Below, in pieces: positions 3,600 to 38,708 of a stretch of DNA of 41,800 bases (positions are counted from its first letter, which is position 1; the number at the start of each line of letters is the position of its first letter). A program made the translations under genes and the position numbers. Source of the stretch: Escherichia phage vB_EcoD_Teewinot; sequence record NC_073053.1; one strand, given 5' to 3'. The notes beneath the pieces are model-generated. The model did not search any database. It was not told the DNA's origin and saw only the letters and a program-made list of their open reading frames with translations.

Positions 3600-4686
3600 T
3601 CAATATTTGGCGGATCGAATGATTCGCCGTCACATCTTCACCCAGCGCCTGAGCAATGATCAGGCGCGGAGGGTGCTGGCTATGTGGGAGAAGTTCCGGC
3701 CCACTTTACTTGGTAAGCTGACCGAGTTACTTGATGGCAAAAAGTCCATGAGCAACAAGGCACTTACCACACTGTTAACGCAACTCGACAAGACCGTCAA
3801 AACGGAACTGCGCGCCGAGTTTAAAGTGCTGGCGGAGAGCCTTCAGGAGTTCGCCGACACCGAGGCTGATTATCTCGCGGACACACTAACGGCAGCGATC
3901 CAGCCCGCTGTCGCCGTACCCGCTGTTGAAGTAGTTGGCGTTGTTACCGGCGCGCAGATTGCAGCGACGGCAATGAAAAACCCGTTCCAGGGTAATACTA
4001 TGATGCAATGGCCTGATTCCCTTTCCGAGTGGACCAGGACGCAGATCGGTAATCAGGTGCGCGCTGGCTTCATCCAGGGCAAGCCAACGATGGAAATTAT
4101 CGCGGACGTGAGGCGCGCGCTAGGCGGTCGTAGTGCGCAAGCCATCTCAAGCGTTGTTAAGTCCGCAGTAAACCACTATGCGGCGACTGCCCGCGAACTA
4201 ATGGTAAAAGCAAATGACGATATTCTCGAAGGTCGCCAATGGTTATCTACATTGGACACACATACTTCTCCCATGTGCCAGCTACGCGATCGCCTGTTTT
4301 ATCCGGTTGATGTTACTCCCGACACCAAAGGAAAGCGCGGCGGGAAAGTGGTGGCGGGGTCACAGTATGGCGCTGGCCCAGGCAAGCTGCATTATTGCTG
4401 CCGGTCAACGGAGACGTGGAAAGTCAAAGGCATGGAAGATTGGCCCAGTGGTAAGCGTCCGGCCCTGAAGGCTGACGCGGGTCGGTTGCTGAGTGAGCAG
4501 GTCGACGCGCAGACTGATTTCTTCTCCTGGGTGCAGCGCCAGCCGCGCCACATCCTGGAGGAATTATATGGGGTGCAGCGCGCGGACCAGATTATGCGCG
4601 GCGTGAAAGTGCCGAAGATGTTCACTGATACCGGCGAACTAATGACTGTTGCACAGCTTAAAAACCGGGGGTTATGGCGTGATTAA
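3583..4686 (+). CDS. head morphogenesis / minor head protein
   Basis: 367 aa ORF overlapping the portal stop; position typical of SPP1 gp7/Mu F-like head morphogenesis proteins. Confidence 0.55.
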   Translation: MAKTVNQYLADRMIRRHIFTQRLSNDQARRVLAMWEKFRPTLLGKLTELLDGKKSMSNKALTTLLTQLDKTVKTELRAEFKVLAESLQEFADTEADYLADTLTAAIQPAVAVPAVEVVGVVTGAQIAATAMKNPFQGNTMMQWPDSLSEWTRTQIGNQVRAGFIQGKPTMEIIADVRRALGGRSAQAISSVVKSAVNHYAATARELMVKANDDILEGRQWLSTLDTHTSPMCQLRDRLFYPVDVTPDTKGKRGGKVVAGSQYGAGPGKLHYCCRSTETWKVKGMEDWPSGKRPALKADAGRLLSEQVDAQTDFFSWVQRQPRHILEELYGVQRADQIMRGVKVPKMFTDTGELMTVAQLKNRGLWRD

Positions 4687-5008
4687 ATATGCAGCGATCG
4701 GGGTGGTTATCGGCCTGGCGGTTGGCTTCTGGCTGGGTGATTCCTACCGCGCTGGCGTTGTGGCGAGCGCGGCGCAAGAAGCGCAAGCGAAAGCCCGACG
4801 GCAGCAAACTAAGGTTGTCGAGGGGGCAGTGCAGGCAGAACAGGCCCGCGACGTAGAATACCGGACTATCACGAAAGAGGTTGTAAAATATGTTACGCGT
4901 CCTAACCGTCCTGATTGTAGTTTTGATGCTGAGCGCGTGCGGATCAAGCAACGTGCCGTTGATGCCGCTAACGGAGTCGGCACTGCGACCGCCGTGCAAG
5001 TTCGATAA
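4679..5008 (+). CDS. i-spanin (Rz-like), putative
   Basis: N-terminal TM helix (IKYAAIGVVIGLAVGFWLG) followed by A/Q/E/K/R-rich helical region. GTG 4679 preceded by GGGGGT; the track gives a TTG start at 4649. A lipoprotein ORF is embedded in the +1 frame over its 3' end. Confidence 0.5.
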   Translation: MIKYAAIGVVIGLAVGFWLGDSYRAGVVASAAQEAQAKARRQQTKVVEGAVQAEQARDVEYRTITKEVVKYVTRPNRPDCSFDAERVRIKQRAVDAANGVGTATAVQVR

Positions 5009-5120
5009 CCCGTCCGCGGACCCCGACGAAGATTTGATGATTGACGTGAAAAATATGGAATGCGGCGCGAAGCTAAGGGCGCAAGTGCTGGAGTTGCAGA
5101 AAATAATTCGGGGGCCGTGA
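4890..5120 (+). CDS. o-spanin (Rz1-like outer-membrane lipoprotein), putative
   Basis: Signal peptide with lipobox (VLMLSAC-GSS), proline-containing mature part with a Cys; embedded out of frame in the 3' end of the preceding TM protein gene; stop codon sits in the loop of a terminator. Confidence 0.55.
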   Translation: MLRVLTVLIVVLMLSACGSSNVPLMPLTESALRPPCKFDNPSADPDEDLMIDVKNMECGAKLRAQVLELQKIIRGP

Positions 5121-5134
5121 TGGCCCCTTTTGTT
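5111..5134 (+). terminator. rho-independent terminator
   Basis: GGGGCC-gtgat-GGCCCC followed by TTTTGTT. Confidence 0.6.
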
Positions 5135-5250
5135 AGCGTGGAATACCGCAGATTTCGAGAGTCCATCATGATTGATTTGGCTTCGGTCGCTATTTCGTGG
5201 TCGCGCAGGATGTTAGCCAGAATCTGGTTTTTAATGTCTTTCGTCAGTCT

Positions 5251-5311
5251 CATTAGTGTGTCCTCGTTGTTGGTGTGCAACCAATATATGCAACCAATAC
5301 GAGGATTGCAA
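5251..5311 (-). promoter_or_regulatory. leftward promoter-RBS-ATG cassette (duplicate of the cassette at 38308-38369)
   Basis: On the minus strand: -35 TTGCAA (5311-5306), 17-bp spacer, -10 TATATT (5288-5283), two ATTGGTTGCA copies, GAGGA RBS (5265-5261), ATG (5253-5251). The 28-nt stretch TATATTGGTTGCACACCAACAA(C)GAGGAC is shared with the promoter of the gene at 38367. Confidence 0.45.
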
Positions 5312-7865: not shown

Positions 7866-8084
7866 ATGAATCCTGCATTACTCGCGGCTATTATCGCCGC
7901 AAATACTAAACGCCGACAGGAACCGGAACCACCGGTACCAGCGCCAGAACCGGAACCACCGGTACCAGCGCCAGAACCGGAACCACCGGTACCAGCGCCA
8001 GAACCGGAACCACCGGTACCAGCGCCAGAACCGGAACCACCGGAACCAGCGCCAGAACCGGAACCACCGGTACAGGAGGGCTAA
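7866..8084 (+). CDS. small proline/glutamate repeat protein
   Basis: ATG 7866 preceded by AGGGGG; 72 aa, N-terminal hydrophobic segment followed by about five copies of PEPEPPVPA encoded by a 27-bp tandem DNA repeat. Confidence 0.5.
   Translation: MNPALLAAIIAANTKRRQEPEPPVPAPEPEPPVPAPEPEPPVPAPEPEPPVPAPEPEPPEPAPEPEPPVQEG
7920..8076 (+). repeat. 27-bp tandem repeat (about 5.8 copies) inside a coding region
   Basis: Unit GAACCGGAACCACCGGTACCAGCGCCA repeated head-to-tail from 7920; four exact copies, a fifth with one substitution, and a partial sixth. Confidence 0.85.
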
Positions 8085-10992: not shown

Positions 10993-11135
10993 TGAAGCGG
11001 GACAGGCGGGACGTCCCGTTTTGTCCCGCCTCTGTAAAACTGCATATCTACTCACTTCCACTGCATAAACTCAAAACGGGACAAGCGGGACGTCCCGCTT
11101 TGTCCCGCCCTGTAAATGTGCATACCTATGCAGTT
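10993..11135. repeat. pair of 30-bp GGGAC palindromes with TGCATA-containing spacers
   Basis: Two near-identical imperfect palindromes CGGGACAAGCGGGACGTCCCGCTTTGTCCCGCC around 11003-11040 and 11084-11120, each centred on GGGACGTCCC, separated by CTGTAAA(N)TGCATA-type repeats. Confidence 0.7.
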
Positions 11136-11139
11136 TTAT

Positions 11140-11313
11140 TGCATAAAGTAAGCGGGACAAAAAGCGGGACAAACAAGGGGCGGGACAAAGCGGGACAGCA
11201 CCCCGTCCCCGCCAGTGCTGCCGCGGTTTTCAGCCGATCGGGACAGCGGGACAGCACCCCAGTCTTTCAGACTAGACGGGGGTCAATGGCCCCCCTCGTC
11301 TGAGACTGAATAA
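11140..11313. repeat. 174-bp GCGGGACA-array element, copy A
   Basis: Four tandem GCGGGACA units spaced about one helical turn apart, a variable centre, two more GGGACAG units, then a long imperfect hairpin (AGACGGGGG...CCCCCCTCGTCT). Near-identical copy at 37996-38169. Confidence 0.8.
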
Positions 11314-21221: not shown

Positions 21222-21245
21222 AAAATCCCCTTTCGGGGATTATTC
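21222..21245. terminator. bidirectional terminator between convergent genes
   Basis: ATCCCC-tttc-GGGGAT flanked by an A-run on one side and T-rich sequence on the other; sits between the + gene ending 21219 and the - gene ending 21240. Confidence 0.55.
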
Positions 21246-21458
21246 GCAGGTGGTGTTTTTGAAATGGTCTACCGACACGTACTGGAAGCTAAACGGATAA
21301 CCCGCCCTTAGCATTTTATGCCCGGAGAAGTCCGCAACACCATACACAGGGACCACATAATCCATGCCGCTATTCTGGTATGTGGCGTCGCAGACTTTAG
21401 CGGGCATGTCGGCACAACCTGACAAAAGAACCGCACAAATCATAATTAAAGTTTTCAT
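21240..21458 (-). CDS. small lipoprotein (candidate Cor-like superinfection exclusion protein)
   Basis: 72 aa, signal peptide with lipobox (AVLLSG-C), GAGGA RBS, own promoter; only minus-strand gene inside the tail gene block. Confidence 0.55.
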   Translation of the reverse strand: MKTLIMICAVLLSGCADMPAKVCDATYQNSGMDYVVPVYGVADFSGHKMLRAGYPFSFQYVSVDHFKNTTCE

Positions 21459-21491: not shown

Positions 21492-21519
21492 GTATTACAC
21501 CGCTCAACCAGGATTGCAA
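21492..21519 (-). promoter_or_regulatory. sigma70-like promoter for the lipoprotein gene
   Basis: On the minus strand: ATTGGTTGCAA supplies -35 TTGCAA (21519-21514), 16-bp spacer, -10 TAATAC (21497-21492). Confidence 0.4.
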
Positions 21520-21540
21520 CCAATTTATGGGGATTTAGCT

Positions 21541-22281: not shown

Positions 22282-22288
22282 ATAGAAG

Positions 22289-22310
22289 GGGCCATACGGC
22301 CCCTTTTTCT
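22289..22310. terminator. bidirectional terminator between convergent blocks
   Basis: GGGGCC-atac-GGCCCC with an A-run upstream and T-run downstream; separates the plus-strand late block from the minus-strand block. Confidence 0.6.
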
Positions 22311-22884
22311 AGTTTGAGTTTTCCCAGGCCATTTTGCGCCGCACCAACGGGCTTTCGTAATACTCCTTTCCCTCCACTTCCACTAAGGGCCAGTCATTAA
22401 CAATGACGTATGGTTCCGCGATATCTTCAATAACGCCGTGCGCGCTTTGTGGCCCGAACGATACGCCCACCAGGATAACACCGGCAACTCTACGGGTGAG
22501 ATACTCGCGAGCGCAACGTGCTTCCACCAATCCGCGACGGATGCCGCTGGTGGCCTTAACCTCGTAGGTCCAGACGGCATCGATCACATGCTCGCGGAAG
22601 TCGGGGCCGGATTTAACCTTGCGCTTACCGACCATGATGATATCGCCGCGGTCGATGGTATTGGCGCTGAACAAGCCGGTACGCATGAGCAAGCCTTGCG
22701 GGATACAACTGCGCCCGCCTGCGTGCCCTTCTAGGTACATGCCCGCAAACATTTCGCCCAGCACACCGACCAGTCGGCTTTGCTTGCACGAGTCGGACGT
22801 TAAGCGCCATTGATCAAACTCGATGCTTGCTATCATTGCCGCCAGGTGGAATTGTTTACCTGATATTTCATATTCGCCGTACAT
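22309..22884 (-). CDS. hypothetical protein, possible PD-(D/E)xK nuclease
   Basis: 191 aa; contains GPDFREHVIDAVWTYEVK, i.e. a literal PD...ExK arrangement. Function is inference only. Confidence 0.4.
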   Translation of the reverse strand: MYGEYEISGKQFHLAAMIASIEFDQWRLTSDSCKQSRLVGVLGEMFAGMYLEGHAGGRSCIPQGLLMRTGLFSANTIDRGDIIMVGKRKVKSGPDFREHVIDAVWTYEVKATSGIRRGLVEARCAREYLTRRVAGVILVGVSFGPQSAHGVIEDIAEPYVIVNDWPLVEVEGKEYYESPLVRRKMAWENSN

Positions 22885-22926: not shown

Positions 22927-23448
22927 TTATTTAAGTGCGCCCGTCACCAGTGTTTTTTCCATGTTACGGAAGTCTTCCGGCGTCATGAGGATTTTCGTTC
23001 CGTCCTCGCCAGTGAGCACTACCATCGGCTGGACGTCCTTGGATACGACGCCGAAATTGGCGGCTTTGACAGTCTTGCCCGCCGATGCCGAAGGATGCCA
23101 CGTTCCGCCGGTGGCGATGGGCCAACCTTTAAGGCTGTCGTATTGCGCTGCCGTTGTATCGACCTGAATCTCGTCGTGTACGGTCATGTACGACTCGCCC
23201 AGCAAGGCCGCATACGCTACCAGGTCGACGATATTGTCTTCCTGGTGCTTACGGTGCTGGCGAACCAGCTTCAGGCAGATCAAGAAGGTCCAGGCTTCTT
23301 GCTCGGTCAGGTCGCGCCCGGTAAGCGCGTTAAACACGTCAGCGATTTGTTTAGCGCTGCGTTCTTCTTTCGCGTTGTCATAGCCGTTTTCTTTCCCGCG
23401 CTGCTCCATAGTGGTGGCGGCGTTTTTGCAGTATTCGTATGCTTTCAT
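22927..23448 (-). CDS. hypothetical protein
   Basis: 173 aa from the ATG at 23448 (AAGGA RBS). The track start at 23472 lies in the loop of a GGGGC/GCCCC hairpin. N-terminal helical region with EQEAWTFLICLKLVR; not confidently recognised. Confidence 0.5.
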   Translation of the reverse strand: MKAYEYCKNAATTMEQRGKENGYDNAKEERSAKQIADVFNALTGRDLTEQEAWTFLICLKLVRQHRKHQEDNIVDLVAYAALLGESYMTVHDEIQVDTTAAQYDSLKGWPIATGGTWHPSASAGKTVKAANFGVVSKDVQPMVVLTGEDGTKILMTPEDFRNMEKTLVTGALK

Positions 23449-23496
23449 TATGTGGTCCTTTTTAGGGGCCATATCGCCCCGACGCGTTAACTATAG

Positions 23497-23518
23497 TGCA
23501 ACCAACCTATTGGTTGCA
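23497..23518. promoter_or_regulatory. perfect inverted repeat of the ATTGGTTGCA motif (operator-like)
   Basis: TGCAACCAA-ccta-TTGGTTGCA; the TAG stop of the HAD gene lies in the 4-bp spacer. Confidence 0.5.
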
Positions 23519-23977
23519 AGTAAATTTTGCAACATTTATTGCGTAAATTTTCGGTACCAGATCGCTGCACGCCCGACGAATTGCCGCGATGTTATTCTCG
23601 CAATCTTCAATGATGACCAGTTCCGACACGTCTGCATAGCAGACCATTTTGAATACAGCGCACGCCTTAAACTCCGGCGGCGGGGTGTCGTCCAGCATGT
23701 GGCGCATAAACAACCGGCCTACGGGGAATACTTCCAATTGCTCGACGGTAGTCTCCCAGCATTCTCGCTGCCGGTTTGTCAGATACGCGATCTCGAAGCC
23801 TTGCTCTTTGTACATGCGCAACAGCGGCAGCATATCCATGTTCAGGTCTTCGCGTACATGCGCTTTGTGCCACTTTGCCCAAAAGGTTGATTTCGTTTTT
23901 ATCCCCGGCACCAGGTCGGCACGCGCATCGCTTGAACCGTTAATAACGCCATCCAGATCGCAAATCAGTAATTTCAT
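23507..23977 (-). CDS. HAD-superfamily phosphatase (putative nucleotidase)
   Basis: 156 aa beginning MKLLICDLDGVI, the DxDG(T/V) nucleophile motif of HAD hydrolases. Confidence 0.6.
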   Translation of the reverse strand: MKLLICDLDGVINGSSDARADLVPGIKTKSTFWAKWHKAHVREDLNMDMLPLLRMYKEQGFEIAYLTNRQRECWETTVEQLEVFPVGRLFMRHMLDDTPPPEFKACAVFKMVCYADVSELVIIEDCENNIAAIRRACSDLVPKIYAINVAKFTCNQ

Positions 23978-25351: not shown

Positions 25352-25383
25352 GTATTAAAAAGGGCGTCCAAACAGGACACCCT
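25352..25383 (-). terminator. minus-strand terminator
   Basis: On the minus strand AGGGTGTCC-tgttt-GGACGCCCT followed by TTTTAAT; the mismatch is a G-U wobble only in the minus-strand RNA. Confidence 0.5.
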
Positions 25384-25401
25384 TAATGTAATGCAACCAA
25401 T

Positions 25402-34836: not shown

Positions 34837-34866
34837 ATGATAGATTGGTTGCAGGATGGGTGTCAA
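34837..34866 (-). promoter_or_regulatory. leftward sigma70-like promoter with ATTGGTTGCA in the spacer
   Basis: On the minus strand TTGACA (34866-34861), 18-bp spacer containing the motif, TATCAT (34842-34837). Confidence 0.4.
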
Positions 34867-35012: not shown

Positions 35013-35043
35013 CATTGGTCATTAACCAACAGGAGACTGAATT

Positions 35044-35373
35044 ATGAATATCAAAGAAGCAATTGAAGTGTTATCTAATGCAATCCGCGGCGAAGCGGGT
35101 AAATCCTGGTATTACACAAATGCGGTGGATACTCTGTTATTTGAAGTGTCCAGATTATCGCGTGCTGAGAAGGAGCTTACCGCGAAGCTGGAATTGCTCA
35201 ACGGCACGGCAGCAAGCAAGCTGCAAAAGCACAATGAAGAAATGGAAGAATACAAAAAACAGGTTATCCGTTTGCGCGCCGAGGGCAAATCCTGGGCGAT
35301 GATTGCCGAGTTGACCGGAATTAATCAGAGCACAGTGCGCTCCTGGGTACGCAATAATAAAACTTCTAAGTAA
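35044..35373 (+). CDS. HTH DNA-binding regulator
   Basis: 109 aa; C-terminal GKSWAMIAELTGINQSTVRSWV is a typical helix-turn-helix; first gene of the rightward operon. Confidence 0.65.
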   Translation: MNIKEAIEVLSNAIRGEAGKSWYYTNAVDTLLFEVSRLSRAEKELTAKLELLNGTAASKLQKHNEEMEEYKKQVIRLRAEGKSWAMIAELTGINQSTVRSWVRNNKTSK

Positions 35374-37648: not shown

Positions 37649-37960
37649 ATTTTGCGCGCATTGGGAATTCCCATATCGCTAAAGATTAAATTTTGCGCGC
37701 ATTGGTTGCCATTTTGGGAATTCCCATATCGCTAAAGATTAAATTTTGCGCGCATTGGTTGCCGATATGGGAATTCCCATATCGCTAAAGATTAAATTTT
37801 GCGCGCATTGGTTGCCATTTTGGGAATTCCCATATCGCTAAAGATTAAATTTTGCGCGTATTGGTTGCCATTTTGGGAATTCCCATATCGCTAAAGATTA
37901 AATTTTGCGCGTATTGGTTGCCATTTTGGGTGTTTTTAACTGGTCGTATTGGTTGCCGTG
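37640..37960. repeat. iteron array, about six tandem 53-bp repeats (candidate origin of replication)
   Basis: Unit AAAGATTAAATTTTGCGCGCATTGGTTGCCATTTTGGGAATTCCCATATCGCT at 37681, 37734, 37787, 37840, a 41-bp first copy at 37640 (12-bp deletion) and a degenerate sixth; each has the palindrome TGGGAATTCCCA, extended to GATATGGGAATTCCCATATC in the third copy. Starts in the last codons of the primase-helicase gene. Confidence 0.75.
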
Positions 37961-37995: not shown

Positions 37996-38169
37996 TGCAT
38001 AAAGTAAGCGGGACAAAAAGCGGGACAAACAAGGGGCGGGACAAAGCGGGACAGCACCCCCGTCCCGCCCCGGATGGCGCGGCTTTCAGAGGAGCGGGAC
38101 AGCGGGACAGCACCCCAGTCTTTCAGACTAGACGGGGGTCAGTGGCCCCCCTCGTCTGAGACTGAATAA
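37996..38169. repeat. 174-bp GCGGGACA-array element, copy B
   Basis: Same length as copy A (11140-11313); identical over the first 60-odd bp and the last 70-odd bp except one A/G difference, with a diverged roughly 40-bp centre. Confidence 0.8.
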
Positions 38170-38307
38170 AATCCCAATACACGGCAGCATAGTGAAAATT
38201 GCGTCGAGGGTAGAACTCGGCAACCAATGCGGGTTGGATAATGGAGAGTGGGAAATGCAGCCACCGCGGATAGCGATCAACTTTTTCATGCGCATGATTA
38301 ATATTGG

Positions 38308-38336
38308 TTGCATTCGTGCCAGCACCCTGCTATATT
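38308..38336 (+). promoter_or_regulatory. sigma70-like promoter built from two ATTGGTTGCA copies
   Basis: TTGCAT (38308-38313, from motif copy 1), 17-bp spacer, TATATT (38331-38336), then motif copy 2 (38334-38343), GAGGA RBS and ATG 38367. Confidence 0.45.
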
Positions 38337-38366
38337 GGTTGCACACCAACAAGAGGACTGCACAAA

Positions 38367-38708
38367 ATGAAATTTCCAGTAACTATCACCGGCAACGACC
38401 ACGGCACTTACGAGAGTACCAAAATGAAAGCATTAATCTGGAATTACACAATGGCGATGGCAAAGCTGAACGAAGCGAAAGCGCTGAACGGCAACATCGA
38501 CCGCGCGGCACATATCGTAATACTGGCACAGCAGGCAATCATGTGCGCGCTCGACGGCATGGATGAACTGGCGAAGGCAATTCACGAATACGCGCAGGCA
38601 TTCTCCCGTGAGCGCCTGGCATATCGCTTCGGGATCGGCGAGACGGCAGTGACAAACGTCGCCCGGATTAAAGCCCAGCGCGAACTATTCGCCCAGCTTG
38701 CGAAATAA
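38367..38708 (+). CDS. hypothetical protein
   Basis: 113 aa from ATG 38367 (GAGGA RBS); the track start at 38304 lies inside the promoter. Confidence 0.55.
   Translation: MKFPVTITGNDHGTYESTKMKALIWNYTMAMAKLNEAKALNGNIDRAAHIVILAQQAIMCALDGMDELAKAIHEYAQAFSRERLAYRFGIGETAVTNVARIKAQRELFAQLAK

Follow-up and report, generated by a model that had tools for sequence, protein, structure and literature searches.

In the lambdoid phages, copies of a short site that is recognized by Cro and CI lie over the -35, the spacer and the -10/+1 of the early sigma-70 promoters at OR/PR and OL/PL; these sites are 17-bp pseudo-palindromes bound by dimers in a fixed geometry. The gp71 repressor of the temperate phage L5 has about 30 stoperators of 13 bp, most of which lie away from promoters. 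In iteron plasmids the Rep protein binds direct repeats at the origin of replication together with an inverted repeat at its own promoter, and the sites of NarL-type regulators occur singly, as direct copies or as inverted copies. The PeSL elements of T4-like myoviruses join a sigma-70-like early promoter to a stem-loop, at several loci beside variable accessory genes and indels (PMC4122927, PMC2839356). The palindrome at 23497-23518 that is considered here is read, with a probability of roughly 55%, as the core of an internal promoter of the sigma-70 type, a core that bears the operator in the form of two 9-mer sites for a phage protein.

The window (the whole stretch of 41,800 nucleotides of phage vB_EcoD_Teewinot DNA that was analysed) comes from a Dhillonvirus, an HK578-like virulent E. 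coli siphovirus; Dhillonviruses are common coliphages that are used therapeutically and serve as model phages in present research on anti-defence. The 5 kb surrounding the palindrome match 156 phage records at 80-95% identity, nearly all of them Dhillonvirus Escherichia phages, and the gene order of the window parallels that of phages KS_S9 and Bas84. Structural and tail genes on the plus strand extend to ~22.3 kb, and the DNA-metabolism genes form a long block on the minus strand from ~34.8 kb down to ~22.3 kb. Rightward from 35.0 kb come the genes for an HTH protein and a helicase-primase, followed by small genes and those for lysis. The searchable literature yielded nothing on Dhillonvirus promoters or transcription starts, or on the motif, its binding or its expression, and the literature searched holds no description of a transcription programme for the genus.

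The palindrome, TGCAACCAA-CCTA-TTGGTTGCA, has perfect 9-nt arms and a 4-nt spacer, as the preliminary description stated, and it lies, also as stated, between two minus-strand genes. The upstream gene (23507-23977, minus strand) encodes a HAD-family phosphatase or polynucleotide-kinase-phosphatase-like protein, and its TAG stop, the complement of cta at 23507-23509, falls within the spacer (23506-23509; minus-strand sequence TAGG). The 9-mer copy at 23510-23518 (copy 1) reads TTGGTTGCA on the plus strand and TGCAACCAA on the coding minus strand, where it doubles as the last codons (C-N-Q) of the upstream gene; copy 2 (23497-23505) reads TTGGTTGCA on the minus strand. Nowhere else in the window do two exact copies of the motif form an inverted pair. 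By itself a 9-nt inverted repeat is not significant, since 10 perfect repeats with loops of 0-12 nt are found in the window and first-order Markov simulations give 3.3 ± 2.6 (maximum 11). The weight of the observation lies in the 9-mer word, not in its symmetry. TTGGTTGCA occurs nine times in the window versus 0.44 expected, a count reached in 0 of 100 shuffles, and the core word ATTGGTTGC occurs 16 times versus 0.54 expected. All exact copies are intergenic or within the last codons of a gene, and eight of the nine are oriented towards the downstream gene. The claim that the arms are copies of a recurrent motif thus holds: the word is strongly over-represented and conserved and appears to behave like a protein-binding site. 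It has the properties of an operator in the broad sense, i.e. it is over-represented, occupies regulatory or non-coding positions and is better conserved than its flanks.

A predicted promoter lies over the palindrome and reads, 5' to 3' on the minus strand, GCAAAATTTAC-TTGCAA-CCAATAGG-TTGGTTGCA-C-TATAGT-taacgcgtc-GGGGCgatatgGCCCC-taaAAGGAccacataATG. Copy 1 together with T23519 gives the predicted -35 hexamer TTGCAA (23514-23519), which is invariant in 18 relatives, and copy 2 lies in the 18-bp spacer, with a single nucleotide between it and the predicted -10 hexamer TATAGT (23490-23495). In a consensus scan TTGCAA-18-TATAGT at 23519-23490 (minus strand) has 9 of 12 matches, a score that alone is at chance level, and promoter-like matches in the window are not above shuffled controls. 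In the 18-sequence alignment T15, T16, G17, C18, A19 and A20 and T39, A40, A42 and T44 are invariant and their neighbours vary, so that the TAnAnT positions are kept in TATAGT, TATATT and TACATT. The -10 hexamer ends 41 nt before the ATG at 23448 of the DUF6378 gene, whose Shine-Dalgarno sequence AAGGA and start codon occupy 23446-23461; relatives do not share the in-frame ATG further upstream, at 23472. A GC stem-loop (GGGGC-loop-GCCCC; 23465-23480, minus strand) begins about 9 nt past the -10 hexamer and so close to where the transcript is predicted to start; it is kept in all relatives with stems of 5-8 bp and is followed by no U-tract. The Shine-Dalgarno sequence and the start codon, too, are present behind it in every relative. 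RNAalifold gives five pairs for the stem-loop, none with double changes, and the only compensatory hint is an A-U for G-C swap seen by eye in the stem of the Bas84 clade. The sequence features expected of a sigma-70-type promoter are present at 23.5 kb: hexamer spacing, conservation at the key positions, and a same-strand gene with a leader and a Shine-Dalgarno sequence. An alternative promoter further upstream (TTGCAA at 23533-23528, 17 bp, TAGGTT) was rejected; it is not conserved in Bas84-type or LM40P1-type relatives. The DUF6378 gene (phrog_9871; 22927-23448, minus strand) would be the first gene of the predicted transcription unit, and a gene with no function assigned (phrog_10558; 22309-22884, minus strand) its second and last. 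A terminator-like hairpin with a T-run on both strands (22286-22305) closes this leftward unit as well as the rightward tail-fibre gene.

For comparison the orthologous region was taken from 14 IMG/VR contigs, four GenBank genomes and three more distant contigs. The distant contigs L144, L149 and L152 came from an IMG/VR scan for TTGGTTGCA-N6-9-TTGGTTGCA with at least 119 matches, which was discarded as a measure of distribution, nearly all matches being 9-bp coding tandem repeats in unrelated or giant viruses. A search of IMG/VR for the palindrome gave 13 Dhillonvirus contigs and five unrelated contigs; the latter have no similarity to the window and were treated as chance. Conservation of the palindrome, which the preliminary description had proposed as a check, stands in part: the 35-nt palindromic module is present in 141 of ~154 Dhillonvirus records, and five relatives have their two copies in the same orientation. 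Most genomes have the inverted pair at the orthologous site. Bas84, JLBYU60 and L014 instead have TGCAACCAA-taa-TGCAACCAA, with both copies reversed, and LM40P1 and L152 have TTGGTTGCAa-N7-TTGGTTGCA-N-TATATT or TATCTT, with both copies direct. All three layouts keep TTGCAA 17-18 bp from a TAnAnT hexamer. The suggested dimer operator defined by the palindrome does not agree with these direct and reversed orthologous pairs. The TAG, to which a role in the design had been given, fares no better: the phages of the Envy/Gluttony/Sloth group have the 4-nt spacer flipped, to CCTA when read on the coding strand, and lack the stop, and their phosphatase ORF runs on to a TAA 15 codons later. In contig L149 both the phosphatase (HAD) gene and the module are missing and the DUF6378 gene directly follows the preceding gene, so that the promoter is dispensable. 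Since the layouts differ, the spacer flips and L149 lacks the module, the hairpin and the stop codon are, as far as the aligned sequences tell, ruled out as conserved features, and the predicted promoter hexamers and the 9-mer words are what remains conserved. On the preferred reading, the inversion of the pair and the TAG between its arms would be accidents of particular lineages, which came about as two copies were packed into one promoter.

The same comparison bears on the idea that the element acts as an RNA or DNA hairpin, whether as a terminator or attenuator, as a site for RNase processing or for stability of the polycistronic mRNA, or as a recombination cruciform. The stem does form in the predicted minimum-energy fold, a scan flags it as terminator-like on the plus strand, and the flipped spacer of the Envy-type phages shows that pairing of the arms, or recombination between them, has happened on one occasion or more. 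Like a Rho-independent terminator, it is a perfect 9-bp stem with a 4-nt loop between co-oriented genes; unlike one, it has only four G-C pairs and no U-tract on the transcribed strand, where the tail is CUAUAGUUAAC, and it is missing in several relatives. The z-score of the fold is only -1.65, the stem is not listed on the minus strand, and the plus strand, on which alone it is flagged, is here the antisense strand of the genes and is situated past a strong terminator. LM40P1, L152, Bas84, JLBYU60 and L014, in which the two copies have the same orientation, cannot form the stem and yet keep the words. A hairpin function is therefore given very little credence.

The 9-mer is also found at the -35, in the spacer or at the +1 of five other promoter regions, all preceding non-structural genes. 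At 5.3 kb two direct copies (5276-5297, minus strand) lie in a sister promoter predicted to drive the remnant of an Nmad5 gene; the site reads, on the minus strand, GCAAAATTcgc-TTGCAA-tcctcgta-TTGGTTGCA-TATATT-GGTTGCAcaccaacaacGAGGAcacactaATG, i.e. TTGCAA, 17 bp that include one copy, and TATATT, with the second copy over the -10/+1. Nmad5 has been reported to be the trigger of the Tmn defence (PMC11846954). A 9-mer at 21515-21523 (minus strand) gives TTGCAA upstream of the gene of a 72-aa lipoprotein that is superinfection-exclusion-like (21240-21458), and LM40P1 has a full two-copy module with TATATT at this position. At 25392-25400 (minus strand) a copy stands 1 nt before TACATT, which is followed by a terminator hairpin; relatives have TTGGTTGCA-N8-TTGGTTGCA-t-TATATT before the terminator hairpin, and the window has lost one copy through a 17-bp deletion of one period. 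Two of the LM40P1 sites share the layout TTGGTTGCA-N8-TTGGTTGCA-N-TATATT. The copy at 34845-34853 (plus strand) is reversed relative to transcription and lies in the spacer of a predicted minus-strand promoter, TTGACA-18-TATCAT, which scores better than any other in the window and heads the leftward replication operon. Two direct copies at 38304-38349 (plus strand) precede the gene at 38367-38708 in the sequence TTGGTTGCAt-17-TATATT-GGTTGCAcaccaacaaGAGGAc...ATG, where the first copy gives TTGCAT at the -35 and the second overlaps TATATT and the +1 and forms a dyad, TTGGT-N5-ACCAA. Such dyads number three in the window versus 0.05 expected, and each closely follows a -10 hexamer. In the 23.5 kb and 25.4 kb modules, and in one that relatives have at 21.9 kb, a GC hairpin comes after the -10 hexamer.

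Among 20 distinct two-copy modules, 35 of the 40 9-mers are exact and the remainder are one base off; the 8-nt stretch between the copies occurs in 16 distinct versions among the 20 sequences, and the -10 hexamers (TATAGT, TATATT, TACATT, TATCTT) are also more variable than the 9-mer. Because the 9-mers are near-exact while the inter-copy stretch and the -10 hexamers vary, the reader of the 9-mer is probably more specific than sigma-70. Host factors were considered as readers: the consensus sites of CytR (GTTGCATT), NtrC, FNR and IHF resemble parts of the word. They leave the invariant TTGG and the variable base after GCA unexplained, and the 35-nt module has no match (E ≤ 10) in 5,426 complete E. 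coli genomes; the idea was dropped as a lead only.

The word could also belong to the promoter itself, as a phage-specific extended element that RNA polymerase reads, or be the site of a positive factor, a phage protein that activates or appropriates polymerase in the manner of the T4 MotA box; it would then mark a class of early or middle promoters and not be a repressor's operator. TTGGTTGCA includes the -35-like TTGCA, copy 1 is the -35 hexamer in most modules, all of the sites are followed by non-structural genes with eight of nine copies pointing downstream, and the HTH protein of the window has a match to Sigma70_r4_2. What makes this account rather unlikely, although it deserves to be taken seriously, is that the 9-mer occupies three positions relative to the -10 hexamer (-35, spacer or +1) in both orientations, whereas an activator or a contact with polymerase normally needs a fixed position. 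Copies over the +1 and abutting the -10 fit occlusion better, and the core word is also found in a tandem array that has no promoter-like context. Tolerance of both orientations and of three footprint positions would thus fit occlusion of the promoter better than its activation. As a separate observation, the 9-mers at the -35 could equally serve an activator.

The preliminary description had the palindrome control read-through into the distal accessory genes. In its strict form, a protein on the palindrome would act as a stoperator-like roadblock, so that less transcription from the upstream replication operon reaches the two distal genes, and there would be no promoter. The site does lie between co-oriented genes with no terminator between them, and, like the sites of L5 gp71, the word is a short asymmetric sequence with several copies in intergenic DNA; contig L149, moreover, shows that the distal genes can be expressed through read-through alone. 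A roadblock leaves unexplained the invariant -35 and -10 at correct spacing, the 5' hairpin and the Shine-Dalgarno sequence, and the modules at 5.3, 21.5, 34.85 and 38.3 kb head divergent or isolated genes where there is no read-through to limit. We hold it to be decidedly unlikely. The conserved -35 and -10, the 5' hairpin, the Shine-Dalgarno sequence and the start codon look instead like a promoter for the distal genes, and a protein bound at 23497-23518 could additionally block read-through.

An HTH protein, the kind of regulator with which binding was to be checked, is encoded in the window, at 35044-35373 on the plus strand. The protein has 109 aa, with a long predicted helix and a C-terminal HTH (HTH_23, Sigma70_r4_2, HTH_28), and is the only one with a Pfam-detectable HTH among 30 non-structural ORFs scanned. 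Its family comprises 24 clusters from Dhillonvirus-like phages only; in 24 homologues residues 47-106 are almost invariant and the first 45 are hypervariable. The AlphaFold (AF2) model (mean pLDDT 86.8) has a 59-residue helix and then a compact HTH, for which Foldseek finds local matches only, to LuxR/GerE/NarL-type and recombinase HTHs and none of them significant (E at least 0.48); a phmmer search against the PDB likewise gives nothing significant (E at least 0.0045). A dyad, TTGGTCATTAACCAA (35015-35029), is found in the 5' leader of the HTH gene itself, behind TTGACA-17-TAGTTT; it is invariant in 18 relatives and overlaps the start region of that gene's promoter. On this evidence the 109-aa protein is a reasonable but unproven choice as the best candidate for the protein that binds the 9-mer. 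Its recognition helix and the 9-mer word are both invariant in all 24 homologues, which leaves no covariation to be read, and the putative link between the two is drawn from their co-invariance and position. A dimer held together by a parallel coiled coil should favour a single dyad geometry; the copies are both direct and inverted, with centre-to-centre distances of 12, 13, 17 and 31 bp, which counts against the model.

A further set of copies lies outside promoters. A 53-bp tandem array of 5.1 units plus one further copy (37661-37957, plus strand) follows the helicase-primase gene; every unit has the variant word ATTGGTTGCC, which is the core word ending consistently in C rather than A (cATTGGTTGCC). 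The window has six copies of the 53-bp unit and relatives have three. No promoter-like context was found at the array. Its place beside the helicase-primase gene is one of the points in favour of seeing the 9-mers as recombination or replication sites, either a homology cassette for swaps of accessory genes or an iteron of the replication initiator that is scattered outside the origin. Gene content does differ beside the modules: the upstream gene is a different one in LM40P1, a small ORF is added in L152, JLBYU60 carries one more gene after its 5.3 kb-type promoter, and in Bas84 the 21.8 kb module is followed by a moron for a membrane protein, in addition to the losses in L149. Several indels adjoin modules at the individual loci compared, the one-period deletion at 25.4 kb is of this sort, and the PeSLs are composite promoter/stem-loop elements that are tied to indels (PMC4122927). 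An invariant 9-mer that occurs within a promoter in either orientation is, on the other hand, more than recombination requires, and array copies that end in C rather than A may be read differently. Such a function has real support in the gene-content differences and in the likeness to PeSLs, would be compatible with a regulated promoter and is probably secondary to that role; as the explanation of the 9-mers it is highly improbable.

These observations can be joined in a more far-reaching proposal, which we think unlikely, although not to be dismissed: one coiled-coil/HTH protein would read ATTGGTTGC everywhere, in the 53-bp array, in the +1 dyads and in the 9-mer pairs, and so couple an origin to shut-off, with the cassettes also serving to swap anti-defence genes. 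If true, the 53-bp array would be a putative origin, and the logic of a plasmid Rep protein with iteron and operator would operate in a virulent siphovirus; the dyads at the +1 of three promoters would include that of the HTH protein's own, and origin activity would be coupled to shut-off of the whole set of early and accessory promoters.

The reading preferred here, an operator-bearing internal promoter at 23.5 kb, is narrower. Host RNA polymerase would start there and drive the last two genes of the leftward block up to the terminator at 22286-22305. A phage-encoded, sequence-specific protein, for which the 109-aa coiled-coil and HTH protein is the best candidate, would occupy the 9-mers and compete with polymerase, and this competition would lead to coordinated repression or shut-off of the set of promoters. 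The anatomy of the sequence, its conservation and the recurrence of the architecture are observed and support both the promoter and a selective constraint on the word; from these we infer promoter activity, the binding of a protein, the sign of the regulation and the identity of the binder. The gain is in annotation and in a regulon hypothesis, and no new mechanism is proposed. The 9-mer would provide a map of about six co-regulated promoters, mostly of accessory or nucleotide-metabolism genes and one of the replication operon. It also suggests a candidate regulator, as well as a compact promoter/operator cassette of possible use in phage engineering.

The palindrome element is thus undescribed and yet of a well-known kind, the promoter/operator principle being textbook. 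The lambdoid operators share with it the placing of short-site copies over the -35, spacer and -10/+1 of early sigma-70 promoters and, by analogy, a phage HTH protein, coordinated shut-off and autoregulation of the regulator's own promoter. They differ in that the site here is an asymmetric 9-mer in direct, inverted and reversed arrangement with several spacings rather than a pseudo-palindrome of fixed geometry, and in that the phage is virulent, has no lysogeny module, and its operator binding is predicted. The PeSLs are likewise composite elements of promoter and stem-loop that are repeated in the genome; the modules here belong to a siphovirus genus, have two extra invariant 9-mers besides the -35 and -10, and are far fewer (about six per genome). 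With the L5 stoperators the word has in common that it is asymmetric, short, multi-copy and intergenic, with an orientation mostly tied to transcription, but its exact copies are all in promoter-like context and both orientations occur at 23.5 kb and at 34845, which sets it apart from the stoperator class. The phased 53-bp array by the helicase-primase gene together with an inverted pair over a promoter resembles the iteron plasmids, except that the inverted pair is not at the promoter of the replication gene and the last letter of the array copies is C where the 9-mer has A; no protein of a Rep family was identified. Among regulators of the NarL and GerE-LuxR type, finally, are the best local matches of the candidate (RhlR, SdiA, LiaR, GerE and NarL; 34-46 residues, ~1 Å rmsd, non-significant), which itself has no receiver or ligand domain and carries instead a long helix and a hypervariable N-terminus.

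Three TTGGT-N5-ACCAA dyads are present in the window, against an expectation of 0.05, and a -10 hexamer lies shortly upstream of each of them (5270-5284, 35015-35029 and 38335-38349). The second of these stands ahead of the gene for the HTH protein (35044-35373), the candidate binder of the recurrent 9-mer, and its sequence is unchanged in 18 relatives; this invariance suggests that the HTH gene is autoregulated through the dyad. Across all 24 known homologues of the protein, the N-terminal 45 residues are hypervariable and the C-terminal 60 almost invariant, a distribution of sequence change suggesting that the N-terminus is a partner-binding end under diversifying pressure.

The 9-mer-bearing sites themselves display structural variation. 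In about seven records of related phages (L013/L015, the Envy/Gluttony type) the 4-nt spacer of the palindrome, orthologous to 23506-23509, is inverted, with the result that the stop codon is lost and the HAD-family phosphatase is 15 residues longer. If the two inverted 9-mers recombine with each other, or template switching takes place between them, an inverted spacer of this kind is the expected outcome. The promoter module at 25.4 kb (25355-25400) has lost its first 9-mer copy through a 17-bp deletion, equal to one repeat period, and in this module a terminator hairpin with a T-run begins 2-3 nt past the -10 hexamer. Transcripts from the 25.4 kb promoter may begin inside the stem and evade the terminator that stops upstream transcripts.

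Accessory gene content varies next to the promoter cassettes among the genomes compared (L149, L152, L017, L018, L016); e.g. L149 is without both the phosphatase gene and the module, and L152 has an additional 22-aa membrane ORF beside the module. The upstream gene beside the module differs in phage LM40P1, JLBYU60 has an additional gene behind the 5.3 kb-type promoter, and in Bas84 the 21.8 kb module is followed by a membrane-protein moron.

Directly after the helicase-primase gene is a 53-bp tandem array (37661-37957) of 5.1 units and one extra copy, each unit containing the perfect palindrome GGGAATTCCC, AAAGATTAAATTTTGCGCGC and cATTGGTTGCC. Relatives have just 2-3 units of the array, a possible origin or iteron region that is expanded in vB_EcoD_Teewinot. 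Repeats of AAGCGGGACAAA / GCGGGAC(A) form two separate clusters, one (38006-38110) situated after the 53-bp array and before the 38.3 kb promoters and the other (10998-11197) within the tail-gene block ahead of the tape-measure gene. A 27-bp tandem repeat, GAACCGGAACCACCGGTACCAGCGCCA, present in 5.7 copies of 98% identity (7920-8073), has the head-tail adaptor gene on one side and the next structural gene on the other.

Overlapping plus-strand ORFs at 4649-5008 and 4890-5120, the second with the lipobox signal LSAC, constitute an i-spanin/o-spanin (Rz/Rz1-like) pair that is unannotated in the KS_S9 record. The pair is located after the head-morphogenesis gene, distant from the holin and endolysin genes (39.4-40.4 kb).

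A remnant of the Nmad5 gene lies within 5120-5260, with a junction near 5156/5157. Relative to Bas84, 642 bp are deleted and ~40 N-terminal codons remain; the upstream promoter and SD of this minus-strand remnant (start 5253) are still intact. Since, in Dhillonviruses, Nmad5 is the reported trigger of the Tmn defence system (PMC11846954), the deletion may be an escape deletion.
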